A stretch of 64,000 nt of DNA. Origin: Macrostomum hystrix (lineage: Eukaryota; Animalia; Platyhelminthes). The stretch is taken from the NCBI GenBank assembly GCA_950097015.1, contig CATNEN010000034.1:7564001-7628000 (forward strand), written 5' to 3'. The notes under the pieces were generated by a model. It saw nothing but the letters and a program-made list of their open reading frames with translations, was not told the origin of the DNA and ran no database searches. Made by a program: the position numbers and the translations under genes. Numbering within the stretch: position 1 is the first letter of the stretch; every line of letters starts with the position of its first letter. Shown in pieces: positions 3,489 through 57,489 of the stretch.

Positions 3489-3792
3489 TGATGTTTGAAG
3501 CTGATTAATAATATCTTGCTGCATTGCATAGCTCCCGAGGTAACCTGTGTGGTGACGTGACTCTGCTTGCGACTGGCTAAGGCAGGTGTGTTGCGCACCT
3601 GCCCGGCATGTTGTCTAATTATTTTGAATGTACTGTGTATGTGCGTGCTTTGAATATTTTTCTTTTTTGTGCACGCGTGGAGTCAGTAGCTCCACCCCTA
3701 ATACTGCTATCGATTTGATGAATATAAAAGTCGCTGTTTCATCTCGTTGAGAGTTTGAGATTCGTTCTACAATCTTAAGCAAGGTCTCTACA
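3489..3792 (+). mobile_element. Ty3/Gypsy 5' LTR
   Basis: TG...CA-bounded ~300-bp segment with an AATATAAA signal, directly followed by a primer-binding site TGGCGACGAG (3794-3803) and a gag ORF. Confidence 0.7.
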
Positions 3793-3805
3793 GTGGCGAC
3801 GAGAA

Positions 3806-4330
3806 ATGAGCCTAGTTGGCTCTATTGAACCCTTTGAAGAGGGGACAGAAAAATGGCAGCAATACCAGGAAAGACTGGAGCAGTTTTTCGAGGCCAATGA
3901 CATCAAAGATGAGAAAAAGCGCGCCGTTCTCCTCAGCGTCTGCGGCAAGAAGACTTACCAGCTAATAGCCAGCCTGCTAGCCACTGGTACTCCGGCTGCA
4001 AGCAGCTATGCAGACATCTGCGAAACACTAAAGAATCACTTCGACCCCGAGCCACCCGAGATCGTTCTGCGCTTCCGTTTCTACGCCCGAAGTCGCCGTG
4101 CCGGCGAGTCAATTGCTGACTTCCTCGCCGACCTGCGCAGACTAGCCAGGGACTGCAACTTTGGCAGCAGCCTGGACAGCATGCTCAGGGACAGGTTCGT
4201 GCTGGGCATCGACGACGAAAACATCCAGCGGAGGCTGCTGTCTTAGCGGAAGCTTACACTCGACACCGCCCTGTCTCGAGCCCAGGCCGAAGCTTCAGCA
4301 GCCGAAGGAAACCTGATAGTGAGCAATTCT
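3806..4330 (+). pseudogene. gag: Ty3/Gypsy (Mag-like) gag with premature stop
   Basis: GSIEPF..W..Y.ERLEQFF.AN..KRAVLLS..LRDRFVLGI..IQRRLL motifs. TAG at 4244-4246, after which the same frame continues as gag-like RKLTLDTALSRAQAE. Confidence 0.85.
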
Positions 4331-4722: not shown

Positions 4723-5039
4723 CCGTCCAACCAACTAGTCTAATGATAATGACTGTATTAGACTAGAGGCTGCGACCTCAACCAGCATAAATATTCTTGC
4801 GAATGTGTATTGTGTATGTGTATTCTTGCGAAGGCTACGGTATTGCCTTCCCCTCAGATCGATGGGTTTTAAATACATTATATAAGGCGAAGCGGAGCGC
4901 GGAAAGTGGCTCCCCGCGAGTTTGTTAGATAATCAGCTTTGAGCTCCGTTAAGTCAAAAAATTATAAAACTAACGGTTTTTGAGTTCTTTCTTAATTTGA
5001 TCCCGAGGTAAAACCCGGAAGAAATCGAACCAGTCAGCC

Positions 5040-5288
5040 GAGATACTGCCATTTGGCCACCAGAGAGCGAGCCGGGTGCACATGGACCACTGCGAAGTGC
5101 CAGGGGTGGGTCTGCTGCTGCTGCTGTCGGATGCGTACTCAGGCTGGCCGGAAGCAATTCAGGTTCCTGACAGGTCTGCGGCTTCGGTGCTGCGAGTGCT
5201 GAGGGCGGTGTTCGCCCGGAACGGAGTGCCGCGGACGTTGGTGTCGGACAATGCTCCCGAGTTCAAATCAGAGAGAGTGTTGCAGTGG
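5040..5288 (+). mobile_element. Ty3/Gypsy integrase core fragment
   Basis: HMDH..DAYSGWPEA..VPRTLVSDNAPEF rve motifs; same family as the minus-strand relic at 34090-35110. Confidence 0.85.
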
Positions 5289-5568
5289 AGATTGTAATCG
5301 TGAACTTCCCATCGCATAATTTCTACACCACCAACAACTCACACTGAGCAGTAGTATCGATTGTGCGCGCTTCATTTTCGAATCTGATTTTGATTCCGAT
5401 ATCATTGTTGCAATTTTACTTCGTTTTTCGCAGTTAATAATTGATTCTTGCCTTTTATAAATTTTAGTCCTGCGAAGAAAATAGAATAAAAAGCTAAAAG
5501 AAAGATATTTTGTACCACGATTCGAACAACTGACGAAAGCAGTTTATTTGTAAGAGTTCCAGGTCACA

Positions 5569-6132
5569 CTAATTGATCACAGTGACCTTCCACCTATCTT
5601 TTTTATCATCTTTAATATGATTCTGGCAGGCAATACTGGTAAGATATGATCGTTGCGGCGTTGTGTCAACAATGTAGGCGTGACTCCAGTACATATTCCT
5701 GATGGTCACAATGTCGCCATCTTTGATGTTCATAGAGTTGTTCTGATTCACAATGAACCACATCTGACCACGATCAGCGGCTCCTTTTTGAAGGTAGATT
5801 GTATAGTCGTTGCCGCATTGTGCATAGATCTCTTTCATATAACCATAATTCTCGAGGACGATCTTCTTAGAGCCATGCCAGGCGTCTTCGAATCGGAATG
5901 AGGTTGGCTTACCGGTTGCGACATTACCGGTTCCGACCAAAAAAAACATTCTTTGACATAACCAACAATTGTATTCACCAACGTCCATGCGGTTTCCTGT
6001 TCGCACATTGATCAGCGTAACCAGCGAGCTTTGGCTGATGACTGCGCGTTTCGAAGCTGCAAGAGGCAGTGCTAGGCAGAGTGCCAGCAGGACCAGCGTC
6101 AGTAGGATGTCAGAACTGCTTTGATTGGGCAT
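5569..6132 (-). CDS. Secreted beta-trefoil-like protein, paralog 2
   Basis: 187-aa intact ORF with signal peptide and an extra YNCWLCQR loop; TATA at 6204-6210 and AATAAA at 5543-5548. Confidence 0.85.
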   Translation of the reverse strand: MPNQSSSDILLTLVLLALCLALPLAASKRAVISQSSLVTLINVRTGNRMDVGEYNCWLCQRMFFLVGTGNVATGKPTSFRFEDAWHGSKKIVLENYGYMKEIYAQCGNDYTIYLQKGAADRGQMWFIVNQNNSMNIKDGDIVTIRNMYWSHAYIVDTTPQRSYLTSIACQNHIKDDKKDRWKVTVIN

Positions 6133-7947: not shown

Positions 7948-9290
7948 TCACAGCTGCAGTCTCTCAGGTGGGCCACGAGCTCTCAGAGGGTACCGCCGGG
8001 GAGTCGTAGCATCCCGACGCGCGTTGCTCTCTGGTCCGTCGGCGGGTTCAGGTGCCGCCTCGCCGATGGTGGCGCCGCTGGCGACAGTATCAGGAGTGGC
8101 GCGCGCACAGCCAGCTCCCAGGGTCGCGTCACTGCCGCCATCAGTCAGCGGCTGGCCGGCATCAGCGATGTCGAGGTCGAAGCCGTCAGCGCGGGCCGCC
8201 ACCAGCTGATCCGCATGCCGCATGTGCTGACCGCGCTGCGAGTCGACGATGTAGTTGCGGCTGCCAGCGCCCTTGATGACGCCCTCCGCCCAGCGCGGCG
8301 GGTCGCCGGCCCTCGCACCAGTGACGGTGCCAGTAGATCCAGGCGGCATCGGAGCCGCCGGCCGATGAGTAGTTGGCTGGGAGCGACGCCGCTGACGCTG
8401 TGCGGCATGTTGCGGTAGCCGAGCAGCAGTCGCTGGAGCTCGGGATCAGAATGACCGCTCTTGAGCAGATGCCGCTTTAGAACTTGGACGAAGCGCTCGG
8501 CTTGGCCATTCGTGGCAGGATGGAAAGGTGCCGAGAACACATGACGAATGCCATTGGCTCGGGTGAATTCGGCGAACTCGGCGGAGGCGAACTGCGGCCC
8601 GTTGTCGGACACCAGCGTGCGCGGAATGCCTTGGTGGGCCAAGATCTCCCGCAGACTCGCGATTGTGGCTGCCGCTGTGGTGCCGCGCATCCGCACGACC
8701 TCCGGCCACTTGCTGTGGGCGTCCACCACCACCAGGTACACATGACCGTCGACAGGCCCGGCGAAGTCGACATGCAGGCGCTCCCACGGCTCCAACGGGA
8801 ACGGCCACGGCTGCACGGGCGCCTTTGGCGGGTCGGGCTGGTTGAGCTGACAGGTCCTGCAGGTCTTTGTTGCAGCCTCCAAATCGCCGTCGATTCCTGG
8901 CCACCAGACGTAGCTGCGAGCTAGGGCGCGCATTGGATGCGCCTGGTGGAGCTCTTGGATCACGTGATCGCGCAGCGCCGCTGGTACTACGACTCTGGCG
9001 CCCCACAACACGCAGCCTTGGTCAACCGACAGCTCCGTCTGCCGCCGGGCGTAGTCGCTCAGCTCGGCGCCGATGGGCGCCCCAGTCTACAGGCAGCGTA
9101 GCACACGGCCCAGCGATGCGTCTGTCCGCGTGTGTCGCGCCACCGTCTGCGCCGTGACGGCCGATCCGGCCCCCTCGTCGAGTAGCAGCGATTCGATGAA
9201 CTATCAGCAGCTGATCCGGCAGTACTCTGGAACTCGAAATGGAAGCGATAACTCTGCGCCCTATGGGTGCGGACGTTTTCCAGGGATCAT
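7948..9290 (-). mobile_element. pol: Ty3/Gypsy pol 3' half (RNase H end, H2C2 zinc finger, rve integrase, C-terminal tail), frameshifted
   Basis: HQAH..ARSYVWWPG..CRTCQ; PWERLHVDFAGP..VVDAHSKWPE..LVSDNGPQF..HPATNGQAERFV. Broken across ORFs 8145-9011 and 7948-8349; 5' part missing. Confidence 0.92.
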
Positions 9291-9329
9291 GACATATCAA
9301 CCTCCTCCAGCAACTTCACCAGCACATGC

Positions 9330-9581
9330 ATCTCAGTTGGCCTCGGCTGGCAAAAGCGTTAGCAAAAGAAGACAGTTGAATGCTAAAGTTTCTAGGAAAA
9401 AGAGAATACAGAAGACACCTCGCCAAAATGGCAAGAAGGGGAAAAATCAAGGAAACGGAAAAATGCAGGTAGAAAGAAACCTAAGAAAGGAGAGAGCAAA
9501 CCAAATAGCAAAACGGTAAGCAAGAGGAAGCGAAAAGTCAGCAAGAAAACGGTGAAGCGCGTGCTGGACTCTTTGTCGTAG
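9330..9581 (+). pseudogene. Basic (Lys/Arg-rich) Maverick core-protein-like ORF, C-terminal remnant
   Basis: K/R-rich reading frames ending KRKRKVSKKTVKRVLDSLS* two bases before the MCP ATG, a position where Mavericks usually carry a basic core protein. Confidence 0.5.
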
Positions 9582-9583
9582 AC

Positions 9584-10854
9584 ATGGCTTATGGATTCAA
9601 CCCAAGGCTCGATTTGTTCAAGGCTCCTGCGCTGCAGACTGCCATTGACAAATCCTCCTATGTCGATATTCACCCCGTGAACTCAACTGCTGCAAATGCA
9701 CCCATCGAATTCGACTGCCACCCATCAGCTGACGAATACACCGATCTATTGAATTCTTTCCTGTACATTCGCTGCCGCCTAGTCCGACTGGATGGGAGAA
9801 TGCTCTGAACGCTGAAGGAGAGCTGACAGAGCGCCGAGACGGTGATGTACACCCTGAAAACTTCGTCTTGTCTACGCTCTTCTCTGATTTCATTGTGAGC
9901 ATTAACCAGCGAGTTGTGTCCGGGGGAGACCAGCTCTATCCCTACCATGCCTATTTCAAAGCTCTCATGAGCTCATCAGACGCCCAGCAGCTGAAGTTCT
10001 ACCCCGCTGGATTCCTGGAGCCTGACTCCACTGCAGTGGCGCACATGGAGATCCACAGGCAGTCCCGCTGGGTGGAGTATGCCGGACCGTTGCTCAGCGA
10101 CATCTTCCAGTGCCCCATGTTCCTGCTGAACAACCTGCACCTGCACATCAAGTTGGTGCCCAGCGACGCTGCATTTGCCATCAGAACCCCGGTCACAAAC
10201 AACACAGCCTACTGCATGGAAATCTCCCACTGCATCCTTCATCTCCGCCGAGTCAAGGTGGCTTCTCACATCAGCCTAGCCCATGAGCAGGGACTGACCA
10301 ACCAGAATGCGCTCTATCCTATGGAGCGAGCCGAAATGCAGAACTGTATTCTGCCCCAGGGAATCCAGTCGAAGAACATTGAAGGCTTTACCCACGGAAA
10401 ACTCCCAAAGTTCATCATGCTGGCTTTCGTGAGCCACCGAGCCTTCAACGGGAATCATCACACCAGCCCCTTCGAGTTCCAGAGCTTCAACCTCAGCCAG
10501 CTAGCTCTAAAGAAAGGTGGGGAAACCATGTGCCACGGTGCATTCACACCCGAAAACAACTCATTTGTGCGAGAGTACTTGCACTACCTGAAAAGCTGCC
10601 AGTCTGCCAGCCCCACCAACTCGGTCCCTTGGATCCCCTATCAGATCTTCTCCAACGACAACACCGTGTTAGCGTTCGACCTCACACCCGAGGGAGCAGC
10701 CCTGTGGTACGGACAGACAGAGGGAAACCTGCGGCTGGAGATTCGGTTCCGACAGGCGCTTGACGAGACCGTGACTCTGATCGTCATGTGCCTGTATGAC
10801 TCTCTGATTGAAGTCACCAAGCATAGGGAAATTTTGCTAGATTTTTCATCATAA
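9584..10854 (+). pseudogene. MCP: Maverick/Polinton major capsid protein (double jelly-roll), single frameshift near 9795-9805
   Basis: LDLF..PALQTAI..YVDIHPV..PIEF..EYTDL..FLYIRC; ..YPYHAY..; YPMER..G.LPK..AFNG..PFEF..; AFDLTP..G.LRLEIRF..LIEV..R. Joins ORFs 9584-9808 and 9868-10854. Confidence 0.9.
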
Positions 10855-10856
10855 TT

Positions 10857-11377
10857 ATGAACACTTTTCAGGTGTTTAAACTTGCCAGAAGCTTTTTGCC
10901 CCCTAAAAAAGTATTTATTGTGTCTCTAAATTTGAATAGTTCTAATAATGCTGAAATAGAATTTCATTTGCGGAGTCACCTGAATGAGAAAACATATAAG
11001 AGCAAATTTATTTTCCTTTTGTTGCGTCACAGCTCCTTGTCAGGCCACTGGGTGGTTTGCGACGTCACTTGCGGGAATTCTGTGGAGCTTTTCAATTCCC
11101 TTGGCTGGGACTCGAAAACTTTAATGATTATTCATGATTTACTGAAAGTAGCCTTGGGTTCCCCGCTTCGTTTGAGCAGCAATGTGGATCGAATTCAAAG
11201 CTGTGACTCTGTCAAATGCGGCCTCTTCTGTCTTGATTTTACTTATCAGAAGTTCAGAAGTTTCAATTCAAACGGTCATTTAAGTGGGTGCTGCGACAGT
11301 TGCATGTACGGGAAAAGAGCCACCTAAATGACAGAATGCTTCGGCAGTTCGAAGGCAGCTTAAGAAAGTTCCGATAG
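10857..11377 (+). CDS. Adenain-like cysteine protease (virion maturation protease); probable C-terminal frameshift
   Basis: GHW (His), FNSLG, IQS..S..CG.FC (Gln/Cys). A shifted frame supplies the C-terminal HLNDRMLRQF to the stop at 11375-11377. Confidence 0.85.
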
Positions 11378-11464
11378 TCGTCTCTCCAGCTTGGATAAAC
11401 CCCACTATGGAAAACTAGTGCGAAGAGAACCTGCTATGATGCCCGCCTGCGGCAGGGAAGCTGC

Positions 11465-12022
11465 ATGATTGTCAGCGGGCCAACCAATGCTGGCAAGACA
11501 ACCTTCATGAAGCAGCTAATTCAGTACAGGGATGTCATGTTTGATGTGAAGCCTGAGAGAGTCCTGTGGTACTATGGGGTTTCGCAGACATTGCACTCTG
11601 AGCTGAGCAGCCTGGGAGTGCACCTGCAGCAGGGATTCCCCAGCAACATTGAGGCGGCTCTAAGACCCAATGACCTGATTGTTTTTGATGATTTGATTGA
11701 AGAGACTTCTAACTCTGCTGCGATGCGAAATGTATTCACCGGAATCGCTCATCACTTACCCTGCTTTCTGGTAATGCTGACCCAGAATGTATTTTTTAAA
11801 GGAAAAGAGTTGCGAACGATGAGTCTGAATGCGATGTACTTTGTCATCATGAAGAACCCCAGAGACCAGCTGCAGATTGCAGCACTGGGCAGGCAGTGCT
11901 TTGCAGAGAAGCCCGGCAGGGGAGCTTACCTGCTTCTGGATTTCCACCCATCCACTCCCGATGAGCTGCGAGTGCGAGCCCGGATCCTGCCCAACCAGCG
12001 CCCCCACCTGGTTTATACCTAA
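11465..12022 (+). CDS. FtsK/A32-like genome packaging ATPase
   Basis: Walker A GPTNAGKT, Walker B LIVFDD, LTQN, RTMSLNA..MKNPRD..QI..LGRQ. The frame extends upstream (YDARLRQGSC). A short deletion after RQCF is likely. Confidence 0.92.
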   Translation: MIVSGPTNAGKTTFMKQLIQYRDVMFDVKPERVLWYYGVSQTLHSELSSLGVHLQQGFPSNIEAALRPNDLIVFDDLIEETSNSAAMRNVFTGIAHHLPCFLVMLTQNVFFKGKELRTMSLNAMYFVIMKNPRDQLQIAALGRQCFAEKPGRGAYLLLDFHPSTPDELRVRARILPNQRPHLVYT

Positions 12023-12061
12023 GAATGGCAAATACGCTGTTTTCCATATCTATACTCAACA

Positions 12062-12424
12062 ATGGACACGCTTTGTTTTCATGAAAGCATCTTTGCAATT
12101 CTTGCATCAGCGAAATATACTGTCAGCTTCAAGCGCTTGCTAATCAAGCACGGTCCGAAAGAAGTGCGAAGATTCCTTGTTGAAGCCTGTTACAACCTGT
12201 ACAGCCTGTTACAATTGGAAAACAACCTGACTTTCTCTCTTATTGAAAAGGCTGAGCTGGCAAAGTCCAAGCAGATTATTCGAAAAATCCCAGCTCAAAG
12301 AAAAGAAGCTGACTTGCTAAATTATAATTTCATAAAAATTCTGCCCACTCTGCTGAAGCTTGTGTATAGAAGAAAGAGGGAAAATGAACAAGTTCTCCGA
12401 GATGGTTCTGATTCCCAAGTCTGA
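12062..12424 (+). CDS. Small Maverick-type hypothetical protein
   Basis: 120 aa, L..A....R..L..FLVEACYNL pattern; tightly packed behind the ATPase. Confidence 0.55.
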   Translation: MDTLCFHESIFAILASAKYTVSFKRLLIKHGPKEVRRFLVEACYNLYSLLQLENNLTFSLIEKAELAKSKQIIRKIPAQRKEADLLNYNFIKILPTLLKLVYRRKRENEQVLRDGSDSQV

Positions 12425-13062
12425 GTATGACATGCTAATGAGTAATGTGAAGCCCAATGAGTCTGCAGGAGACATTGCGGTAAAGCAGGCACAGATTAAA
12501 TGTGATGATATATTGTATGCCGACGATTGCCCAGACAATGTACCTGAACGCTATGAAAAGTTTGTTGTCCAAGCGCAAGCAAGTTGGAAAGGAGAGTGTA
12601 GCAGGAGAGAGTGAAGCGGCAAAGAAACAGAAAGCAGAGATGCTGCCGAGCAGCTGGGATGAAAAGATTGCCCAGTCCGTGCCCCAGAAATTCAAAACCA
12701 GGGTTCGCAGTCTATGGGCCATCCTATCAGCCAATCCGTCTCTGATCTGGGTGGGTGACAATGGGGAGACGGAAATTTCCGGCAAGTTAATCCCCTCATC
12801 GAACATCGTTGACTTGATTCAGCATGCGGTGAGGGATTCTGAAATGCGAAATAAACCAGCCGGGTGGGATGATTTCGTTTGCTTGCTGGGACGAAAGAGT
12901 TGCAATGTCCCAGTTTCAGCTATAGCAAAATCCCTCAGACAGAAAATATCTCTGCCAGCTACCAGTGAAGAGGTTGAAGTTGGAAAAGAACGACATGCAA
13001 CTAAGGGATTTGGGTGCAAGACAGCCTGGCTGAAGCTAGGTGAGCGAAAAAAAAGTATATAA
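12384..13062 (+). pseudogene. Maverick-type conserved hypothetical protein, frameshifted near 12535
   Basis: MNKFSEMVLIPKSEY start; W..NGE..I.G..IP.SNIVDLI..P.GW..F..L..NVP.SAI motif. Confidence 0.65.
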
Positions 13063-13112
13063 GAAAGCAGCGGGCTGATTCTAATGTCCAAGAATTCGAT
13101 TCATGACTGAAA

Positions 13113-13570
13113 ATGTACTACATCGACATCCAAAGCTTTCCATGTGACAGTGATTTCATTGTGAAGGAGATGGCAGTTGTAGAAGTTAGGTCAGGAAGCT
13201 ACCTCGTCACCCACCAAGTGTATGCGTCCCTTTGTTCCTGGGAGAGGAAACTTTCCTCTGGAATGCGAATTCGATACAGACGGCTCACACAGAAGCGGCA
13301 TAGGCTAAAGTGGACCGGTGGAACCCGACCTTACACGGAGTTGGCTGCTGACATCGGGAGAATTTCATGCCAGCCCACCTGGACATGTGGGGAGAATAAA
13401 CACGTGTATTTCTGACCCAGCTGCTGGGGAGGCAGGTGTACAACCTGGAGGATCTGGGATCGCCATCTAGCAAAACATCAGATACCGGCTGCGCCGTGAG
13501 AAACGCGCTTTTGTATTACAGCTGGCTGAAGCCAACATTTTGTAGCTTAATCAACAGCTTAAGAAGCAAG
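13113..13570 (+). pseudogene. Maverick-type DEDD/exonuclease-like ORF, frameshifted near 13410
   Basis: YIDIQSF..FIVKEMAV..LKW..G..PY, continuing in a shifted frame as FLTQLLGRQVYNLEDLGSP..CAVRNA. The true end is uncertain. Confidence 0.55.
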
Positions 13571-13655
13571 CAGTGCCCGTGGCACATGAGAATTTCAAAC
13601 TGCTCCTCCTGCACTAGAAGCACGGGCAACTTCGCAAACAGCCGACGCATTAGAA

Positions 13656-14297
13656 ATGACTACTCAAGCAACAGCCCTGAGAGTGACCAACCTGGTTGGC
13701 GGTGTGGATCTGAGACTGGCCGGTGGCAGGGACGCCCAGCTTCCACTTCGGGAACTCACTCTCAGCATGGCTCACGTCATCTACCGACCCGTCTGGCCCC
13801 GAGTGCTCATCAAGAGGATGCGGAATCCGAGAGTGACACTGCTACTCTACCCCACTGGCCAACTGAGCATCTGTGGCGCCCGGAGCTACTCGGACTCAGT
13901 CAGGGGTGCCCGTCGCTTCGTGGCTATGCTGCATCGCAGAGTGCCGGCTCAACTGCTGCCTCGTCAAACTTTCAGTGTGAGGATTAAGACTATCACTGCG
14001 CATGGAAAACTTGCAATTCAAAATGTGCTAAATCTAACAAGTTTGTCACATCTGCTACCAAATGCTGAATATGAACCCGAATCATTTTCTGCTTTAATTT
14101 TCAAATTACGATTTTGCAAGTGTCTGCTTTTTCACAGTGGTTCGTTTGTTCTCAGTGGTGCCCGCTCTGTGACTGAGCTGCAAACAGATTTCACTCATTT
14201 GCAGACTGCTATCTCTGCTTTTACATACATGAACAACGGTTTTTTCAAAAGTAAAAAAAACGCAGGCGATTTAAAGACTTGGAAAGTTAATTGTTGA
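13656..14297 (+). CDS. TATA-binding-protein-like (TBP core, two repeats), intronless, element-encoded
   Basis: Repeat 1: VTNLVG..YRPVWPRVLIKRMRNPRVTLLLYPTGQLSICGARS. Repeat 2: NAEYEPESFSALIFKL..CLLFHSGSFVLSGARS. Both align to the TBP motifs NIVS..YNPKRFAAVIMR..ALIFSSGKMVCTGAKS and YEPELFPGLIYR..LLIFVSGKVVLTGAK. Confidence 0.88.
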   Translation: MTTQATALRVTNLVGGVDLRLAGGRDAQLPLRELTLSMAHVIYRPVWPRVLIKRMRNPRVTLLLYPTGQLSICGARSYSDSVRGARRFVAMLHRRVPAQLLPRQTFSVRIKTITAHGKLAIQNVLNLTSLSHLLPNAEYEPESFSALIFKLRFCKCLLFHSGSFVLSGARSVTELQTDFTHLQTAISAFTYMNNGFFKSKKNAGDLKTWKVNC

Positions 14298-14859
14298 AAA
14301 AATAATTGAGTTTTCGACTTACTTTTTCGTTTTATTTGATAAAATCTTGAAAGAAATTAACTCCCAAAACTGCCAAATTATAAACAATGAATATAGCATG
14401 CGCATTAGGAAAGCAATTTTAACGTGACAACGGATAATGTTTTAGAGGCAATAAAGTGAAAAAAAACTAAAATATTTCCTTCACCAAAAAAAACTAAAAA
14501 CTAGATAAAGATGCAAAACTTTCACCGGCATTTCACAAAATGACCACAGAAAAATAGCAATGCATTCATTGTTGCTAACACGGGAAACAAATTCTAAAAC
14601 AGACTTTGGCAAACGTTTTAACATAACATAACATAAGAAAAGACAGTGTATGAAAAAAATCGAAATAGGGCGTTGAAGAGAATAAAAGTAGAAAAAACAC
14701 TGCAAAGGCGGAAGCAAAAATAAGTTGAAAAATAAATGAAGAAAAGATTTGCTTTATCTACGATCGAGTACACAAGAAAAAAATCAACAGTGCCATTTAA
14801 TTTCTATCGGCGGATTCTCACAACTCGAGCCTCCTGCGTTTGATGACCGAACGACTGAT

Positions 14860-16620
14860 TCAGAGCATAGTGTCCAAAGGGAAGACTCTGATTACTACTC
14901 AGCCACACTCGCTTGTCTTCCCAGATTGAAAGGCTCCGCTTACTCAGAATTGACGTGAAGACAGTGTGCTTCTTGGAGACAATTGTTGCCATGGCAACCG
15001 TCTGTTCTTTTTTAGAATTGAACGCGTCGACATCGACGCTCTTAATGACAAATAGCGCTCGGAAATTTGTGGAAACACACTTAGTTTCCAATTTTCCATG
15101 CTCCCATGGGCAGTGGCAAGCAGAAGATGCAAATCCTAGCCACCCAAATTTTGGAAAATGACAGGCATAAACCTGCGCCTAAGCTGAGCTCGCATCTTAC
15201 AATTTTGGCATGCTGCACCTTTAAAAAGGCCTGTTAGATGGTCGTGGTCATAGTGTTTGTCAGTATTATTGATGAATAACTGATTGCAGTAGTGGCAAGA
15301 CTTCGCAGCAATAAAATTTACCAAGTCCGTGATTGACGACCTGTCAGCTGGTTGATGGCTATGCATCTGGTTCCAATGAAAAACTTCGCGGGCCAAGTTT
15401 TCGAGAGATTTTAGAAATCTAAAGATGCATTCATTTGGATCCGAATCGCAAAACGATTGTTACATGTCCTTTTTAGGCCTAAGTGCAGGTCCTAGCATGC
15501 CATCACTAGGTACCACAAGGTAAGCTGCGGCACAAGGCTCACGTTTGGCAATTAAATCGGGAGATTCAGTATTTTCGCGTAAAATAGCCTCCAGATCGGC
15601 ATAGACAACGTATGGTGGACTGATCGTGTTTTGAAAGTCTTTGAACTTGATTTCATTCTGTCCTGGAACAGGAAGCGTTTCCTTCACTGACTGCATCAAT
15701 TTTGCATTCAGTCTAGTGTTGTTGAAGTCTATCACTAGAGTAGAAAGAAGTCAAGCATGTTGTGCACCACTTTCTCATGGCAAGACCATTTCGACTGTTC
15801 ATCAGTCTGTCGAAATTGCTAATGGCGCACCAATTTTTCTCTCCGTAGCTGTCTTTGACGAGTAAAAGCAATAGATGGATTCGGTTACCTGCGTCATGCT
15901 TGAGACGACGGATAAGGCTTACGCTGCCTTGCTGCCATGAAAATGCTGAGATACAAATTTGCGGATTTATCACTTCAACACGATCAATATCGGCAACATC
16001 CATAGGCATTGAGACACGACTAAAGTCAAGCTCATGGATCCAATCATCGTAAGAAGAAATCTTACCAGGTGACTTTTTAACTTTTGGATACATGTGGTGC
16101 AGAGCAGCAAGACAAGCATACTTGAAACAGTCGTTGCCTGTGCTTGGTGGATTTATAACTGCGTTTTTGTTTTTCAGACTTGCAGGAAGATTGAATCTTA
16201 CGGCTCTGCCGCGGTGAAATCGAATTGGATTGTACTCGTGCTTAGCTAAGCTAATGTCAATAAAATTAATTGGACGAATTGTCCAGCCACTGCCATTAGT
16301 ATTGAGCATGCTGCAGATTTTCTCAAATTCTTGCTCCTGTCCACTGAGCCAATCATTTAGGTGTTCCACGACATCGCTCTGATCAATAGCTTGCATCTTA
16401 CAGCTTATCCATTTATCTTCTTCAGCTAGCCTCTCTCCATCTTTTATCTCTCCATATGGACATTCGCCTTCAGCTGAATCTTGTAATGATGCCTTGAAGT
16501 TCTAATTTTAGCGCGTCAATTATTAGATGCCGAGCTTGGGCAAAGAATTCAGATGGTAGAGTGTCGGAATGGCTTGGTCTTAGTATTAGGAGTTCTAGTG
16601 TCTGGTCATGGGCTTCTGCA
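14860..16620 (-). pseudogene. polB: Protein-primed family B DNA polymerase (pPolB) of the Maverick, frameshifted and with the catalytic core deleted
   Basis: N-terminal GSGW..YNP..LP..INP..DCFKY region, ExoI YADLE, zinc-binding CHYC..DHDHLTG..GAAC..C, PVIFQNL, joined almost directly to the C-terminal SLS..EDKR..SLPFGHY. Confidence 0.88.
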
Positions 16621-17927
16621 ACTCTGGTGAGACTGACTGCCTGGCCTAAAATGTGTGTTTTTTAAAAAGAATTTATTAGCTCATGTGTATTGGTTAATAC
16701 TAGTCGAATACAATATACTCGTAACTTAGCCTTTGTCTGATAAATATTCTCAACTTCAAAAACCTTCTATAAACAACCATTTGGGTTAATAAGAATAGTT
16801 CGATGGTTTTAGCAACACTAGTTAAATTAATGCAGTAACTCGTATATTTGTTTCTTTGTCGATTTTTTTTCTTAATATTCTTATTTTTCTGGTTATATCG
16901 AAACTGATTAAATTAGGGTGAAATAGAAGCGGCATAAAATGTGTCTCTTTTTAGTGGTTACAGAAATTCGTTCCTTAGGCATGTGACCCACATTCTCCTT
17001 GCTAAATTGCAGTCAACATTTGTGTTTTTGCTTGCTGTTTTATGACTCGACTGTCCAAAATCAACTGCTGTTTGAAAAGTCCAGATCTCAATGTCTGCTG
17101 CTCTGGGGTTTATTTGAGCAATGCTACATGCTATCTCACCTAACTGCTCCACACTGTCTCCTTGCATGGGCTCATCTGGGCCAAAATCGGATTCACTAGC
17201 AACGCTACTGTGCTCAGTGCTGTCGCTAGTTCCGCTGCCGCCGCCGCCGCTGTCATCGCACCTATTGGTACTACCATCGCTTTCAATGCTGTCGGATGCA
17301 TTAGTGACAACATTTTGCTCGCTGCTAGCTCTGCTGATTGCACCTGATTGCTGACCTGAGGAAAAGGACGCATTGAGTTAACTATAACTTAGCGGTTTAA
17401 ATTTACTAAATTATGTCTTTTTTTCTCCAGAAAAGAGAGATAATGATAATCGCATTGCTCACGTCTCTACAGAACTTTATGTTCTGAAATCCTAGTTGTA
17501 TAAACTGAACGAAGCAATCGAATATTAATTTATGGTCCTATAGACATGTCATCAATCAGTAGCAGCTCTACAATAGTTTTGAAATCCTGTTCTATGCACT
17601 TAACATCAAGAATTAGGAAACTTTAGTCAACTCACTGTCATTTTCTTTATTGCTTACATTCACATCACCCACAGACGCAGCAAATTCCAAAGCTTTTCAA
17701 CTCCGCTTGACTACTTCTTATCGCTGGAAAACTGTTTTCACAGATAACTGATAACAGTTAACAGTTAACAGAACACAGATAACAATTTTCACAGTTTTCA
17801 CAAAAAACATTTTCTAACTCATTATACGAAATTAACTCGTACATAACCTATAAAAATTATCAGCTGGTGCGTCCCATCTCCACTAATTTTAAGCACGGAA
17901 AATTTTCTAATTGATGAAAATTCGGAA

Positions 17928-18854
17928 TTACAGTGGCAAAAACATTATTTCATTGCTAAAATATGTTATTTTGTAACCTGATCCGGTGACAGGTGGAAGA
18001 ATGAGCTGCACTTGATTCATTTTCGCTGGAATCTCGTTCGCGGTTGGATTTCCAATTCCACCAGCTGTTGGCATCACTCCATTTGAAGCTTCGGCTGCAT
18101 TAAACTCTCCCAGGGCCTCCATTAGAAAATCAACATCTTGCTGAGGCAGCTGAACATCAGGGGGTGGCAGCTGGACGTCGGCAGAAGGCAGCTGAACATC
18201 AGGGGGTGGCAGCTGGACGTCGGCAGAAGGCAGCTGAACATCAGGGGGTGGCAGCTGGACGTCGGCAGAAGGCAGCTGAACATCAGGGGGTGGCAGCTGG
18301 ACGTCGGCAGAAGGCAGCTGAACATCAGGGGGTGGCAGCTGGACGTTGGCAGAAGGCAGCTGAACATCAGAGGGTGGCAGCTGGACGTTGGCAGAAGGCA
18401 GCTGAACATCAGGGGGTGGCAGCTGGACGTTGGCAGAAGGCAGCTGAACATCAGGGGGTGGCAGCTGGACGTTGGCAGAAGGCAGCAGAACATCAGGGGG
18501 TGGCAGCTGGACGTTGGCAGAAGGCAGCTGAACATCAGGGGGTGGCAGCTGGACGTTGGCAGAAGGCAGCTGAACATCAGGGGGTGGCAGCTGGACGTTG
18601 GCCGTTTGCCGCTGATGATGATCAATATCCTCTTCGTCGCTCCCCTCTTCCTCGTTAAAACTAACGCATGGACTGCACATCCAAAGTTGTTTGCCTCTAA
18701 TTTGCGGCGGTTGACGATCGGCATGCGGCTCAGCGAAGTCATCGTCACTGTTGGTCTCGGCGATGACCGCATTGATAAGCTGGCTGAGGGCTTGCTTTCT
18801 GCCTGCCTCCTCGCTCGCCTGATCTTGGGCTTTTTGCAGCACACTGCGTCGCAA
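17928..18854 (-). CDS. Hypothetical acidic/Pro-rich ORF with 14-aa repeats, inside the Maverick boundaries
   Basis: 308-aa ORF co-directional with polB, with 11 copies of A(N/D)VQLPPPDVQLPS. Start codon is non-ATG and the coding status is uncertain. Confidence 0.3.
   Translation of the reverse strand: MRRSVLQKAQDQASEEAGRKQALSQLINAVIAETNSDDDFAEPHADRQPPQIRGKQLWMCSPCVSFNEEEGSDEEDIDHHQRQTANVQLPPPDVQLPSANVQLPPPDVQLPSANVQLPPPDVLLPSANVQLPPPDVQLPSANVQLPPPDVQLPSANVQLPPSDVQLPSANVQLPPPDVQLPSADVQLPPPDVQLPSADVQLPPPDVQLPSADVQLPPPDVQLPSADVQLPPPDVQLPQQDVDFLMEALGEFNAAEASNGVMPTAGGIGNPTANEIPAKMNQVQLILPPVTGSGYKITYFSNEIMFLPL
18146..18603. repeat. 42-bp tandem repeat (two 21-bp halves), ~11 units
   Basis: GCAGCTGAACATCAGGGGGTGGCAGCTGGACGTTGGCAGAAG units; about 3 units remain in the duplicate at 25221-25343. 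Confidence 0.92.
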
Positions 18855-18996
18855 GTTGCGGACTCCATCGTCACCAGCAGGCAGCAGCTGATGTCCTCGA
18901 TGCCGAAGAGCAGAATTTTTTTCCCGGGCTTAATCAACCCGCATTGCCAGCAAACAGACCATGTACTTTTGTTACATCTTGAGTGGCGGTCCGACT

Positions 18997-19377: not shown

Positions 19378-19914
19378 CTAATTGATCACAGTGACCTTCC
19401 ACTTATCTTTAATATAATTCTGGCAGGCAATACTGCTAAAAGATGATCCCTTCGGCCATTTGTCAACAATGTAGGCGTGACTCCAGTACATATTCCTGAT
19501 GGTCACAATGTCACCATCTTTGATGTTCATAGAGTTGTCCTGATTCACAATGAACCACATCTGACCACGATCAGCGGCTCCTTTTTGAAGGTAGATTGCA
19601 TAGCCGTTGCCGCATTGTGCATAGATCTCTTTAATATAACCAGGATTGTCGAGGACGATCTTCTTAGAGCCATGCCAGGCGTCTTCGAATCGGAATGAGG
19701 TTGGCTTACCGGTTGCGACATTACCGGTTGCGACCAATAATAACGCACCTTTGTCTTCACCAACGTCTATGCGGTTCCCTGTTGCCACATTGATCAGCGA
19801 AACCAGCGAGCTTTGGCTGATGACTGCGCGTTTCGAAGCTGCAAGAGGCAGTGCTAGGCAGAGTGCCAGCAGGACCAGCGTCAGTAGGATGACAGAACTG
19901 CTTTGATTGGGCAT
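19378..19914 (-). CDS. Secreted beta-trefoil-like protein, paralog 3
   Basis: 178-aa intact ORF; TATA at 19986-19992 and AATAAA at 19352-19357. Confidence 0.85.
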   Translation of the reverse strand: MPNQSSSVILLTLVLLALCLALPLAASKRAVISQSSLVSLINVATGNRIDVGEDKGALLLVATGNVATGKPTSFRFEDAWHGSKKIVLDNPGYIKEIYAQCGNGYAIYLQKGAADRGQMWFIVNQDNSMNIKDGDIVTIRNMYWSHAYIVDKWPKGSSFSSIACQNYIKDKWKVTVIN

Positions 19915-21194: not shown

Positions 21195-21835
21195 AGTTTG
21201 GGATATAACCCTGGCAGATTGGGAATCAATCCTCCCAGTTTGGGACTTGTAAGCTGGAGAACTCAAGTCAAGTCTTGTTCGCTGACAAGCCAACAGTTGA
21301 GGGCCAGAGCCAAAGCTTGCGATCTATTTATTATGCACAGACTTTACGATGAATGCACGTTGATTATTGAAACGATTTGATTGGTTGAGGGCTAAAACAT
21401 GCACTGACACGCAGGTGGATATGCGGTGAGTAAACACTGCTAGAGAGAGACAGCGCACGACAGATAGGGAGAAAGATAACACAAAATGTAAACGAGGACT
21501 GAAGCATAAAAGTGCAACCGCAAAACCAACACACACTGGGAGTATGTCAATATCAGACTGGGTTGATTGAATGCCAAACAGAGCCAATCCCCTGCTGCAA
21601 TCTAATGCTGAACGGCAGTCAATCTCATGCCAAATCTCGACAGCGGAAAATCACGCCACCAGTGCTTCTCCGTGATCACTTGCAGGCAACGCTGGAAGCT
21701 CAGCAACTGTGAAGCGAAGCACAGAGATACTCCTGATGAGTAAATCACGTTAAAGTTTTCCTTATTGATTGCAACGCAACCACAACGTCATCTGCATTCC
21801 TGAAGGTAAAAATGTAGTTCCTAGGATTAAAATGT

Positions 21836-22346
21836 TCTGTCATCCTACTGACGCTGGTCCTGCTGGCACTCTGCCTAGCACTGCCTCTTGCAGCTTCGAA
21901 ACGCGCAGTCATCAGCCAAAGCTCGCTGGTTACGCTGATCAATGTGCGAACTGGGAACCGCATGAATGTTGTTCAAGAGTCACCCCATGGTTTGTTATTT
22001 TTGGACGTCAAAACCGGTAAGCAAGCCTCATTCTGAAGACGCCAGGCATGGCTCTAAGAAGATCCTCCTCGACAATCCTGGTTATATTAAAGACATCTAT
22101 GCACAATGCGGCAATAGCAGCGTCACAGTCTACCTTAGAAAAGGAGACGATGATCGTGGTCAGATGTGGTTCATTGTGAATCAGAAAGACTCTATGAAAA
22201 TCAAAGATGGCGACATTGTGACCATCATGAATATGTACTGGAGTCACGCCTACATTGTTGACACATCGCCGAAACGATCATCTCTTAGCAGTATCGCCTG
22301 CGAGAATAATTATCCAGACAAATATAAGGTCACTGTGATCAATTAG
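21836..22346 (+). pseudogene. Secreted-protein paralog 4 (promoter and start deleted, 5-bp frameshift)
   Basis: Lacks the TATA/ATG segment and lacks GTTCA at ~22035 relative to paralog 6; AATAAA at 22367-22372. Confidence 0.85.
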
Positions 22347-24447: not shown

Positions 24448-25737
24448 TGATAAATATTCTCAACTTCAAAAACCTTCTATAAACAACCATTTGGGTTAAT
24501 AAGAATAGTTCGATGGTTTTAGCAACACTAGTTAAATTAATGCAGTAACTCGTATATTTGTTTCTTTGTCGATTTTTTTTCTTAATATTCTTATTTTTCT
24601 GGTTATATCAACACTGATTAAATTAGGGTGAAATAGAAGCGGCATAAAATGTGTCTCTTTTTAGTGGTTACAGAAATTCGTTCCTTAGGCATGTGACCCA
24701 CATTCTCCTTGCTAAATTGCAGTCAACATTTGTGTTTTTGCTTGCTGTTTTATGACTCGACTGTCCAAAATCAACTGCTGTTTGAAAAGTCCAGATCTCA
24801 ATGTCTGCTGCTCTGGGGTTTATTTGAGCAATGCTACATGCTATCTCACCTAACTGCTCCACACTGTCTCCTTGCATGGGCTCATCTGGGCCAAAATCGG
24901 ATTCACTAGCAACGCTACTGTGCTCAGTGCTGTCGCTAGTTCCGCTGCCGCCGCCGCCGCTGTCATCGCACCTATTGGTACTACCATCGCTTTCAATGCT
25001 GTCGGATGCATTAGTGACAACATTTTGCTCGCTGCTAGCTCTGCTGATTGCACCTGATTGCTGACCTGAGGAAAAGGACGCATTGAGTTAACTATAACTT
25101 AGCGGTTTAAATTTACTAAATTATGTCTTTTTTTCTCCAGAAAAGAGAGATAATGATAATCGCATTGCTCACGTCTCTACAGAACTTTATGTTCTGAAAT
25201 CCTAGTTGTATAAACTAAACAGAAGGCAGCTGAACATCAGGGGGTGGCAGCTGGACGTTGACAGAAGGCAGCTGAACATCAGGGAGGCAGCTGGACGTCG
25301 GCAGAAGGCAGCTGAACATCAGGGGTGGCAGCTGGACGTTGGCCGTTTGCCGCTGATGATGATCAATATCCTCTTCGTCGCTCCCCTCTTCCTCGTAAAA
25401 AATAACGCATGGACTGCACATCCAAAGTTGTTTGCCTCTAATTTGCGGCGGTTGACGATCGGCATGCGGCTCAGCGAAGTCATCGTCACTGTTGGTCTCG
25501 GCGATGACCGCATTGATAAGCTGGCTGAGGGCTTGCTTTCTGCCTGCCTCCTCGCTCGCCTGATCTTGGGCTTTTTGCAGCACACTGCGTCGCAAGTTGC
25601 GGACTCCATCGTCACCAGCAGGCAGCAGCTGATGTCCTCGATGCCGAAGAGCAGAATTTTTTTCCCGGGCTTAATCAACCCGCATTGCCAGCAAACAGAC
25701 CATGTACTTTTGTTACATCTTGAGTGGCGGTCCGACT
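24448..25737. repeat. Direct duplicate of 16738-18996 with an internal ~1-kb deletion
   Basis: Near-identical at a constant offset of 7710 up to ~25216, then jumps into the 42-bp repeat. Confidence 0.92.
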
Positions 25738-28244: not shown

Positions 28245-28793
28245 CTAATTGATCACAGTGACCTTCCACTTATCTCTTTTATCATCTTTATTATGATTCT
28301 TGCAGGCAATACTTCTAAAAGATGATCTGAACCGCCATGTGTCAACAATGTAGGCGTGACTCCAGTACATATTCCTGATGGTCACAATGTCACCATCTTT
28401 GATGTTCATAGAGTTGTTCTGATTCACAATGAACCACATCTGACCACGATCAGCGGCTCCTTTTTGAAGGTAGATTGCATAGCCGTTGCCGCATTGTGCA
28501 TAGATCTCTTTAATATAACCAGGATTGTCGAGGACGATCTTCTTAGAGCCATGCCAGGCGTCTTCGAATCGGAATGAGGTTGGCTTACCGGTTGCGACAT
28601 TACCGTTTGCGACCAATAATAACGCACCTTTGTCTTCACCAACGTCTATGCGGTTCCCTGTTGCCACATTGATCAGCGTAACCAGCGAGCTTTGGCTGAT
28701 GACTGCGCGTTTCGAAGCTGCAAGAGGCAGTGCTAGGCAGAGTGCCAGCAGGACCAGCGTCAGTAGGATGACAGAACTGCTTTGATTGGGCAT
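28245..28793 (-). CDS. Secreted beta-trefoil-like protein, paralog 5
   Basis: 182-aa intact ORF; TATA at 28865-28871; recent duplicate of paralog 3. Confidence 0.85.
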   Translation of the reverse strand: MPNQSSSVILLTLVLLALCLALPLAASKRAVISQSSLVTLINVATGNRIDVGEDKGALLLVANGNVATGKPTSFRFEDAWHGSKKIVLDNPGYIKEIYAQCGNGYAIYLQKGAADRGQMWFIVNQNNSMNIKDGDIVTIRNMYWSHAYIVDTWRFRSSFRSIACKNHNKDDKRDKWKVTVIN

Positions 28794-34089: not shown

Positions 34090-35110
34090 GGTACACCTGG
34101 ACTCTGCACGGAGATGTTTGCAGAAGCACCAGGTCCCGGCTGCTGCTGCACCAGTCACGGCCCGGCCGCCTTGGTCCTCAGGTCCAGCCGCCTCGCAGCC
34201 AGATGGAGTCGCCCACCTTCTCGGTCATGGTGAGCGTCATGAGCGTCATGAACGTCATAAGCTGTTCCGGAGAGTCCGAGCGGTTCCCGCTTGGCCTGCT
34301 GGTGCGAATAGTCAGGAGCAGCTTCTGCAGAAATTGGTCGAATGTCACCACCTTGGTTCACGTCTTCAACCCGCCTTTCAGACTTCTCACCAGCCGCTCA
34401 GCCTGTGCAATAGACTGCGGATGATAAGGCGGGGTGTGTACCTCCTGGCACCCGACGCTGCTCAGCCACTGCAACACTCTCTCTGATTTGAACTCGGGAG
34501 CATTGTCCGACACCAACGTCCGCGGCACTCCTGTCAGGAATTGCTTCCGGCCAGCCTGAGTACGCATCCGACAGCAGCAGCAGCAGACCCACACCTGGCA
34601 CTTCGCAGTGGTCCATGTGCACCCGGGACCAAGGTTCGCACTCTGGTGGCCAAATGTCAATCTTTCTCTGAGCAACCGGTCGCCTCTCTGAGCACAGCTG
34701 GCGCCGCTCAAAAAACTGACGCACCTCGCGGTCCAGTCCAGGCCACCAGAACTACCTTGAGACATGCGCCTTGTTTTCTCCGCACTTAGGTGCACCTCGT
34801 AGTGCGCAACCTCCAGGATTGTCCTGCGGAGGATTGTTTGCGGGACCACCCTGGTGCCGTGAATGACCATTCCGTTCTCGACCGACAGCGCTTCTCCACC
34901 TGGCCCCAGCGGCCTGTCCGGATTCTCTGCTGGAACAGCGAGCACTGCACAGTCGCCTGCGCGACTTCTCCAACTTCAGCGGGGGCCGGCCGAGCTCGTC
35001 CCAGATCCTCCGGGAGACCAGCGAGCAGGAGGCGCCGCTGTCCTTCTCCATCTGCACGTCCCGATGGTTGATCCTCACCGTGCAGTACTCGGCTGGCCGT
35101 CCTTCTCCGA
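34090..35110 (-). mobile_element. Ty3/Gypsy pol relic: aspartic protease joined to integrase, RT/RNase H missing
   Basis: VQMEKDSGASCSLVS protease motif; then LSVENG.VI.GTRVV..H, PWSRVHMDH..DAYSGWPE, VSDNAPEF..HPQS..AER. Confidence 0.82.
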
Positions 35111-55014: not shown

Positions 55015-57489
55015 CTGCAATTTAAATTTAATTTAATAAATATGAATTTATGCATATAATACTTATAGAGTGAACACAACATATTTTCTAGTTAAATTTA
55101 ATGATTAAAAACACGGCTCGCATAATGTATCTCTAAAGGAAAAATATAGTATATAAAACTCAATTGAAGTTGCTGGTTGAAAACTTTGCAAACTCAGCCG
55201 TGTTTCTTTCTTATAACTAGAACAGCTATGTATGCTAGTTGTAAGCTATCTATATATTAATACAATAATTATATTGCTGTGATTACAGTTTGATTAAGAA
55301 TTATGTGAATCAAAATAAACTCACAGCGAAGAATGTTGACGAATAATATTTAACATAAAAATCATGGTGTAGGCAGAAAATAGTCACGCGCAAAAAAGTA
55401 AATTATTGAGAAAGTCAAAAATTGCTTATCAGCTTGTCCGAAAAAGTTTTTTATTTGTAAACATATTTTAAAAGTAACTGGTGAAACTGTTTTCTTGCTT
55501 TAAAAAAAGTTATATTGAATTAATTTTAAAATAAATTTATAACTAACACCGCGCCTTAAACATACCAACGGTGTTTTACTTCTTTAAACACGGGGCAAAA
55601 CTGGGAGAATTATGTGTTCCACGTTAAACATCTCAAAAACTGCACCGGTACCTTTATCAAAGTAAAAACTAAGTAAAATAAAGGATATAAATAAATTAGC
55701 AAAGAACTTACACAGTCCTTTAAATTTCCTATAAATACTATAATTTTGTATGCATTTTATAAATCAATAAAAACATTTATAAGTAATTCCTTTAAATCAT
55801 GCAATCTACAATCGCTTAAGAATTGCTTTGGGGGATAGAAGTTTCGAACGCTTTGTCTTGCCGACGGAATTTTCTAGTCTAATTCATTTAAATCGCATTA
55901 AATATTTTTCTTTATACCATTAATCCTAAATTTACTTTTATTTTATTTTTTAATCGTGTAGCTGCGCGTTCCATTTATCCAACAAATAATCAAGCGAAAT
56001 AACCTATCACTTTGCATGGTAGCTCTTTGTAATAATAAAGTTCTGATTTCAGCTGCTTAGAAGCAGAGTACTGCAGAACACATTCCAGAAGTCCCATGCA
56101 GGTAGCATATAACACAGGTGCATAAAAAGAAACAGCAACTCAAGTCCTAAACATATTCCGATAAGCTCCAGGCACCGGACCTGAAATACTTCGAAAAAAA
56201 TATTGCTGCAGCATGAACTAATATCTGCATATTTGTTCAGATAGCAGAATCGTGTAAAGCACGCTTTTGGTGCTTCGGATGTATTTCCTAGTAATGAGCT
56301 ATAGCAAGCATTGTGTGTTATAATTTCAGACAAAATGTTATAATTTTGAGCTCTAAGGATTAGGCGTTCTTAACGAAGCAGGTGTAAAAATATCGCCGAT
56401 TACTACTTGACAGTATAAGCATTTGGATCTACTTCTATTTCGGAGGTCAACAAATCTCAAAACATCTCTTTGGCTGTGTGGTATTTGAAGGCCAAAAGTT
56501 CTGTGTGGTGTGCATTTTTAGTACAGCAGAAGTTGTCATGTTGCTTTTATAGACATATTAAACGACTAGAGCAAAAATGTTTCTCCTACAAAAAGCCTCA
56601 TGTATATGCTTTTCTGAAAATTTAAAACACAATACGAGCAATGTTGAGCAGCCTGCAATTATTTTGTTGCTATATCGCATTTACACATAAGATTTGAAAA
56701 AGCAAACACCAGTACAATGCAAATATTTTTTCTTCATACTGTTCAGGCGACAAACTTCAAACCCACCTTGTGCCCCATCTCATCTTGCCGTCATCTTTTT
56801 GTTAGACCTTGTCGACATGGATCATAGCCTCCCTCCAACAGCCAGCTAGACACACTTCACTGCTTTGATACCGCTTCTTAATGCGATGCAATTAATACGT
56901 ATCCTGTCTGAGAATGCGGGGCTTGGGGCGATGAGACGCTTGGGAAACTTTGTAATTCCCCTTTCTTGACTTGCCCAACCCCTGCATGGTCTGGAGTGAA
57001 TTGCTCCTAAATAAAAAGTGAAAAGCTTCATGCAGGGAGAACAGAACTGACAAGCGATGGATTGATAGACGCCTGGTGTGAGATTCAGGCCAACACAGTT
57101 CGCAGAGATCGCTTGGCTGGTGGCCTATGGCTCCTCAGTCAAGCTGCTGATCCCCATCCCAATATCCCCGTCCCAGATCCCAAAGTATAAGGGACAATAA
57201 AACGGGTCTCACTCCAGTGGGCCCACAACCCACCAGGAAAGTCAGTTCCGATTTTCATACACAGAAATTTCTTATAGGTATGTTGTCAATATTATCTGTC
57301 GATTGCATGAGAATAACTGTGAGAAGACTCACAGGCGGCAAGGCATGCCCGACCAAGCGAGTCAAAATCTATACCCATTGTGCCATTGTGCATGGAAGAT
57401 TCCTGCTGCTTGACAACTTGCCTGTCTTAGACCCAGCGACAATAACTGCTCGGTACCATGCAGAAGAGATGCAACATAAAATTTTCCAC

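Follow-up and report, generated by a model that had tools for sequence, protein, structure and literature searches.

Viral TBPs and animal Mavericks

Homologues of the TATA-binding protein (TBP) are documented in large dsDNA viruses, where they mostly come with a TFIIB of the virus's own and where the glutamates that contact TFIIB are variable (Ravarani 2020, PMC7221094, in the part used here). The TBP described in this work resembles them in its two lobes and its changed N-lobe. Its closest working analogy is ORF24 of KSHV, the vTBP of beta/gamma-herpesviruses, which, with a more polar DNA face, recognises the non-canonical, TATA-like late sequence TATTWAA and works with host Pol II. In the sections of the source considered here (PMC12529657), ORF24 is a multi-domain protein of 752 aa belonging to a six-protein complex; it keeps four intercalating Phe, all of which are required, has no TFIIB glutamates and contacts Pol II itself.

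In animal Mavericks/Polintons, a packed intronless capsid module converges on the polymerase gene, most genomic copies are decayed and the genes are under purifying selection (Barreat and Katzourakis 2021, PMC8097293, in the part used here). In the literature that we searched, we found no account of how these elements, which have no RNA polymerase of their own, time the expression of their capsid genes. The word TATA is absent from the main text of Barreat and Katzourakis, and both TBP and TATA are absent from the main texts of PMC11161782, PMC10748475 and bioRxiv 10.64898/2026.06.19.733378. An earlier note on this locus had taken a Maverick-borne TBP to be new. The novelty is lower than assumed, as TBP is labelled in the map of a MELD virus with an adintovirus-like PolB in Starrett et al. 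2021 (PMC8502044, Fig. 5 legend). Like our element, the MELD case is a mid-size virus of the polinton type that carries a TBP-like gene; in the portion of the paper used here, TBP is a legend label with no residue, selection or promoter analysis and no flatworm is included. TBP does not appear in the supplements of PMC8502044 and PMC10120064, and figures or GenBank annotations might name more TBP-bearing elements. Across our literature search, TBP was found with adintovirus only in two versions of Starrett et al.

A TBP-fold gene in a truncated Maverick-type element

The window analysed here is a stretch of 64,000 nucleotides of the flatworm Macrostomum hystrix. It contains on its + strand, at 13656..14297, a 213-aa frame that runs from ATG to stop without interruption in the ORF listing of the window. 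Pfam TBP (PF00352) matched this ORF over two stretches with an E-value of 5e-24 (84.4 bits versus a cut-off of 22.9), and a PDB sequence search retrieved 35 TBP sequences at E 2e-10 or better. An AlphaFold2 model built from a 130-sequence alignment reached a mean pLDDT of 93 and predicts a saddle-shaped structure of two lobes, whose core spans approximately residues 6-190. The predicted structure superposes on human TBP with a Z of 19.2 and an rmsd of 2.0 Å over 176 residues and, more generally, on human, plant, yeast and archaeal TBPs with Z of 16-19 and rmsd of about 2 Å over 173-180 residues (Z 18-19 for the cellular structures 1ytb, 1cdw and 1mp9, which have the same saddle fold). The best non-TBP row in this comparison had a Z of 8.7, and giant-virus TBPs matched the model more weakly (best TM around 0.6-0.7, 8-21% identity). 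These results bear out the earlier description of an intact, intronless ORF made of the two TBP repeats with no N-terminal extension, as well as the claim that it is far more divergent than cellular TBPs: its identity to those is about 25-30% (about 25% in structural superpositions). It thus differs from cellular TBP in sequence, in the missing extension and in its intronless state within a viral gene block. The last ~20 residues extend beyond the ends of all four full-length relatives, have a GC content of 0.33 and are poorly modelled; since this tail is unshared and AT-rich, it may be a read-through into non-coding DNA.

The copy in the window is a dead, truncated fragment of a Maverick/adintovirus-type element, in which the TBP gene closes a tightly packed + strand gene run. 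This run starts with a basic, K/R-rich ORF (9196..9519, +), possibly a core protein, whose 5' side abuts a retrotransposon piece. It is followed by the major capsid protein gene (9584..10854, +), which has one frame break near 9800 and to which 427-aa relatives are 75-82% identical in tblastn. One of the capsid relatives, P0009 (76% identical), falls in the ESM Atlas into a DJR-like cluster (score 0.98), 65% of whose members carry PF21738; we infer from this that the product would be a double-jelly-roll major capsid protein. This label stands as one line of evidence, since no Pfam capsid match was obtained for the window gene and the structure model of its frame (5 sequences) had a pLDDT of 31. 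The next ORF (10857..11327, +) is called protease-like from its sequence and position; its His and Cys motifs resemble those of adenain-type proteases, and searches of Pfam, PDB and PHROG gave no informative match. Circumsporozoite matches of the same ORF were dismissed, as they depend on a single short Cys/Trp motif. The packaging-ATPase-like gene (11407..12022, +) is broken near its start; it has a Walker A motif and weak P-loop matches below the cut-off.

Three smaller frames separate the ATPase-like gene from the TBP gene. The first is a small ORF of the capsid module (12062..12424, +) with no family match. The second (12384..13062, +) is broken and has no Pfam family; we take it to resemble pz, a conserved accessory gene of Mavericks. 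The third, directly upstream of the TBP gene (13113..13618, +), is likewise broken and without a Pfam family, and its N-terminal motif resembles that of DEDD exonucleases. Frameshifts in the capsid gene and in several neighbours had been noted before, and both the break near 9800 and the broken state of the ORF that precedes TBP agree with this.

On the - strand, the TBP gene faces a polymerase remnant (14804..16501), which we take from its motifs to be a protein-primed DNA polymerase B. N-terminal, exonuclease-side and C-terminal-like pieces are present together with an endonuclease VII insert (Pfam Endonuclease_7, E 8e-6). No PDB match was found for the remnant, and a scan of the whole 64-kb window for the catalytic polymerase motifs A, B and C found none of them. 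Nuclease inserts have been reported in Polinton pPolB (PMC10748475, in the part used here). The TBP gene therefore does lie at the end of a co-directional run and does converge on pPolB, as the earlier note had it, with the restriction that this pPolB is only a remnant with several stops and frame changes. AATAAA signals in convergent orientation (14331..14455; minus strand 14336, plus strand 14450) lie between the two.

The left bound of the element is a piece of an LTR-retrotransposon-type integrase (8145..9191, -), and the contigs of related copies diverge from the window at 9191. The corresponding ORF (8145-9086, GC 0.66) carries an H2C2 zinc domain and rve; it was considered as the Maverick integrase and rejected on this domain composition. 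With the left arm cut at 9191 by the retrotransposon piece, no retrovirus-like integrase or minor capsid protein could be assigned. Unlike the Mavericks/Polintons described in the part of PMC8097293 used here, the window copy is thus without a left arm, an integrase and a polymerase palm. No second copy of the gene block is present in the window, and none of the 25 longest inverted pairs (out of 1,679) flanks the block, one end of the element being missing.

Other features of the window are listed here for completeness. To the right of the polymerase remnant, 16738-17514 and 18476-18996 are duplicated at 24448-25225 and 25220-25737 with 98-99.5% identity, approximately 960 bp between the two parts being missing in the repeat; the duplicated stretch may include the right arm of the element, although no terminal repeat could be assigned in it. 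LTR-retrotransposon pieces are scattered at 3779-4246, 5001-5297, 8145-9191 and 34358-34870 and are gag-like (Retrotrans_gag, E 1e-4) or integrase (rve). Between satellite arrays of 21-22 bp there are at least six near-identical intronless genes of ~180 aa with a hydrophobic N-terminus, in both orientations (409-957, +; 5569-6132, -; 19378-19914, -; ~21820-22346, +; 28245-28793, -; from ~31250, +). They have no Pfam family and in the PDB match only lysenin, and that weakly (residues 198-270, E 0.012); they might possibly carry a lectin-like domain. Short, weak matches to P-type cation ATPase domains (39628-40263 and 44674-45243, -) are probably exons of a host gene with minisatellite-filled introns. 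Finally, the long "ORFs" at 40379-42088 (604 aa) and 57481-61248 (1,234-1,336 aa in three frames) were rejected as genes, as they consist of 21- and 16-bp tandem repeats.

Linkage, phylogeny and selection among copies

Among 1.84 billion representatives, six proteins matched the TBP at E below 1e-30. One of them, the repeat protein P0016, is a spurious match and was excluded from the alignments. The closest named relatives are five gene models of Macrostomum lignano (P0002, P0006, P0013, P0014 and P0163), which are 69-91% identical. P0013 contains, in the order of the window, pieces that match the capsid, the ATPase (59% identical to the ATPase-like gene), ORF 12384 (48% identical) and TBP. 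P0006 fuses a homologue of ORF 13113 to TBP, its N-terminal half being 50-57% identical to the window ORF. The linkage of TBP to Maverick-type genes, which had been proposed as a check, is hence seen in two other gene models. P0002 and the TBP part of P0013 share the first 107 residues of P0002 and may be the same locus, and P0014 and P0163 show no element context. More distant, unnamed TBP relatives are approximately 70% (Logan) and 50% (JGI) identical, and capsid relatives occur in parallel identity steps of 75-80% and 56%.

Searches of viral contigs for the capsid, for the TBP clade and for two short, distantly related TBPs yielded no loci of these relatives, and metagenome contigs searched with capsid and TBP alignments yielded nothing. 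The sole locus from one further contig scan (L001, 1-20519 of an IMG/VR contig) encodes a TBP beside a PolB that is split by an endonuclease VII gene. It was rejected as a Maverick on its ribonucleotide reductase, heliorhodopsin and large-virus-type PolB neighbours; it is a large DNA virus, and its TBP falls outside the element clade in the tree.

The tree was computed with a mixture model from 49 rows and 176 columns; at least 81 hits and the host TBP were left out, and the group labels come from motifs. Six clade rows form one group (99/95), to which two ENA metagenome proteins with the same YPTG and IKTIT changes attach (99/88). The clade lies outside the archaeal-like rows (99/96) and outside the canonical eukaryote-like group (92/98), among short, long-branched TBPs from unnamed contigs. 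Among the short TBPs from unnamed contigs are P0080, P0122, P0147, P0089 and P0033 (170-193 aa, two on contigs of 13 and 19 kb), in which Thr replaces the second Asn as in the element clade; they may be the TBPs of other mid-size viruses.

These data bear on the possibility that the TBP gene is a retrocopy of a host TBP or TRF2 that inserted here by accident and plays no part in the element. A free tree separates the clade from the TRF2-like row, and forcing them together is not rejected for this single row (p-AU 0.06); host TBP paralogues are outside the comparison set, which leaves the retrocopy some room. Against it, the same neighbours accompany TBP in other copies, the gene is under purifying selection (see below), identity to cellular TBPs is low and the sister rows are metagenomic proteins. 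Besides, all seven clade members have Tyr65 at what we infer to be the N-lobe L5.1 column, where Trp is a feature of TBPL1 (PMC7221094, in the part used here). Linkage largely refutes a retrocopy, to which we ascribe a very low probability, and the phylogenetic check that had been proposed points the same way: within a comparison set from which host paralogues were left out, the clade groups with short metagenomic TBPs, not with canonical eukaryote-like rows. Taken together, the observations support a genuine, divergent, element-borne TBP gene.

Selection was examined by aligning to the TBP gene the contigs from four DNA runs with a likeness filter of 80%. These runs are not independent, since they come from one study that possibly includes the window's own sample, and their depth does not equal copy number. 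Among the 40 best-supported of 116 differing places, 39 are inside the TBP ORF. Synonymous changes account for 29 of these 39, versus 26% expected (binomial p 5e-10; crude pN/pS 0.12), a test that gives a direction and not a rate, because the likeness filter and the choice of rows introduce bias and sites are not independent. An overlapping frame used as a control gave 5 synonymous changes out of 25. The TBP is thus under purifying selection among copies, which bears on the question of dN/dS raised by the earlier note. Contigs of related copies align across the coding core, and the similarity drops off at either end of it.

The open frame in a decayed block raised the alternative that the TBP of the window copy is retained for a host function. 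The frame is open despite at least four breaks in the 4.1 kb upstream. Nevertheless, with about one break per kb, simple arithmetic leaves a 0.6-kb frame open more than half the time, and domestication is not needed to account for it. Moreover, not all TBP copies are intact: one contig has frame-breaking deletions in TBP and P0006 shifts frame inside the TBP region. The TBP of the window copy also has its unshared AT-rich tail. As the selection signal is between copies, it reflects the past replication of the element. We consequently regard host co-option, one of the two possibilities that had been put forward, as very improbable; the other one fits the break rate, and the open frame in the window copy is probably due to chance.

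DNA-facing residues and the TAAGAA box

Column counts were made on an alignment (A4) of 7 clade members and 123 outside TBPs. The element TBP has P48, Y65, F144 and F159 at the four intercalating positions, and so does not display the four Phe of canonical TBP. Pro48 is present in 7/7 clade members in a column where 105 of the 123 outside TBPs hold Phe. The four intercalating residues had previously been read as aromatic throughout. This stands for three of them (Y65, F144 and F159) and fails for the first: Trp47 is one column before the intercalating Phe column, in a column dominated by R, K or Q among the outside rows. In the central Asn pair, N12 is kept and the second residue is T112 in 7/7 members, versus N in 115/123 outside rows. 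The glutamates E140 and E142 of the C-stirrup are present in all seven, and two acidic glutamates at this place are TFIIB contacts (PMC7221094). Compared with cellular TBP, the first Asn, both C-lobe Phe and the C-stirrup EPE are therefore kept, whereas the first Phe is Pro, the second Phe is Tyr, the second Asn is Thr and P191 is Ser.

For a broader view of the DNA face, 16 yeast DNA-contact positions were taken from Table 1 of PMC12529657 and mapped via canonical rows, yeast TBP itself being absent from the alignment. Seven of them are identical to yeast (N69, V71, L114, F190, L205, F207 and V213 in yeast numbering) and nine are changed, including F99 to P, F116 to Y, V122 to S, T124 to C, N159 to T, V161 to T and P191 to S. 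In ORF24, too, polar residues take the place of V122 and V161 (PMC12529657). Pro at the P191 position favours T as the first TATA base according to the sections of the same source used here, and Ser at this position accordingly fits boxes that start with C. Most of the changes are invariant within the seven-member clade, down to about 50% identity. The altered N-lobe is also the better conserved one, with 0.78-0.88 identity in five close relatives versus 0.62-0.68 for the C-lobe, and 0.53 versus 0.49 in the distant relative P0015.

With one intercalating Phe and one Asn lost, the protein might bend DNA weakly or not at all, and an alternative is that it acts as a decoy, binding host TFIIB or regulators of TBP (NC2, Mot1) and dampening host transcription or defence, with a host factor reading the box described below. 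Its invariant TFIIB-contact glutamates alongside a reduced set of DNA-intercalating residues would suit such an activity, as would helix 2, which is basic at most positions. However, the DNA face is not decaying, given that the changed residues are invariant in 7 relatives down to ~50% identity and that the N-lobe is the more conserved lobe; a common TAAGAA box also needs a reader. We therefore hold a decoy to be unlikely.

Within 9192-14300, the + strand contains the hexamer TAAGAA five times and the - strand lacks it, versus ~1.4 occurrences expected, and five occurrences were reached in 3-4 of 300 simulations. All five sites are 42-102 nt before the start of a gene, i.e. those of the capsid, the ATPase, ORF 12062, ORF 13113 and TBP. 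The first (9482..9487, +) is 102 nt upstream of the capsid start, taken as the first ATG after the box. The second (11361..11366, +) is 46 nt upstream of the first ATG before the ATPase motifs and may overlap the stop of the protease-like ORF. The third (12020..12025, +) overlaps the ATPase stop codon and lies 42 nt upstream of ORF 12062. In the fourth (13056..13065, +), 53 nt upstream of ORF 13113, TAAGAA is inside a TATAWAWR match and overlaps the stop of the upstream gene. The fifth (13560..13565, +) precedes the TBP start by 96 nt and shares an 11-nt match with the ATPase box. When the sites are aligned with a TATA box on TAA, four of them carry C where that box has its first T, two bases ahead of the hexamer. 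The fourth site is the only canonical TATAWAWR match in the block, which is not significant by itself (17% of simulations).

The placement before 5 of 8 starts was equalled by 1 of 2,000 random start sets, and a permutation that keeps all 48 TAA fixed gave 2 of 20,000, with the same result for a wider zone of 20-150 nt; these values refer to a 42-102 nt zone that was chosen after the sites had been seen and to a box known from one element copy. Two of the five sites certainly, and three possibly, overlap an upstream TAA stop. Three of the eight starts have no TAAGAA box, and the spacing from box to ATG varies 2.4-fold. Two more TAAGAA are found on the - strand at 16874 and 16883, in AT-rich DNA upstream of the polymerase remnant. 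No paper on such a protein-box pair was found in our literature search.

From the sequence features above, we consider it somewhat probable that the element TBP would be a promoter-selectivity factor that binds the TAAGAA box and recruits host TFIIB and Pol II. First expression would be driven by host TBP at the box before the pair formed by ORF 13113 and TBP, as this box is the only canonical TATA match of the block. The viral TBP would then read the boxes that depart from the canonical TATA, in front of the capsid gene, the ATPase gene, the accessory genes and its own gene, the last of these providing positive feedback. Its changed DNA face (P191 to Ser, V122 to Ser, N159/V161 to Thr and F99 to Pro) would make T less necessary as the first base and admit a G inside the box. 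The kept C-lobe glutamates would dock host TFIIB and, if they do, neither a viral TFIIB nor a viral polymerase would be needed. A box before TBP itself fits less cleanly with an early/late switch.

In this respect, the element TBP departs from the known viral systems. The TBPs of large viruses are usually paired with a viral TFIIB and their TFIIB-contact glutamates vary (C.L3.2 is ~40% conserved) in the part of PMC7221094 used here, whereas the element TBP keeps both glutamates invariant and no TFIIB family match was found in the element ORFs scanned, in a copy that is incomplete and whose full-length counterparts might encode one. In contrast to ORF24, the glutamates are kept and one Phe is lost; the multi-domain architecture of ORF24 (PMC12529657, in the sections used here) is also replaced by a bare core of ~190 aa.

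The same box could be used differently by a repressor or timing factor that blocks host TBP at element promoters and so silences the integrated element, or could be an initiator-type motif to which the element TBP has no relation. A box before TBP itself would suit negative feedback, and the spread of distances to the ATG (42 to 102 nt) would fit as well. Conversely, the TFIIB-contact glutamates kept in 7/7 clade members would be superfluous for a pure repressor, and we judge this pair of explanations to be rather unlikely. Returning to promoter selectivity in its fullest form, a TBP reduced to its core, with its specificity shifted to a box other than TATA (TAAGAA, often with C first), and serving a mid-size integrating virus as a one-protein transcription switch through host TFIIB and Pol II appears to us a tentative proposal, with chances a little short of even.

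If true, no smaller viral pre-initiation system would be known, and the TBP and its promoters would form a natural pair of altered specificity. Such a TBP, which would read changed DNA sites through host TFIIB, would be useful for the study of TATA recognition and for orthogonal promoters, and the cognate pair of TBP and box can be tested directly with a single small protein and five short DNA sites. For the elements themselves, it would support the existence of a real viral late programme in Mavericks.
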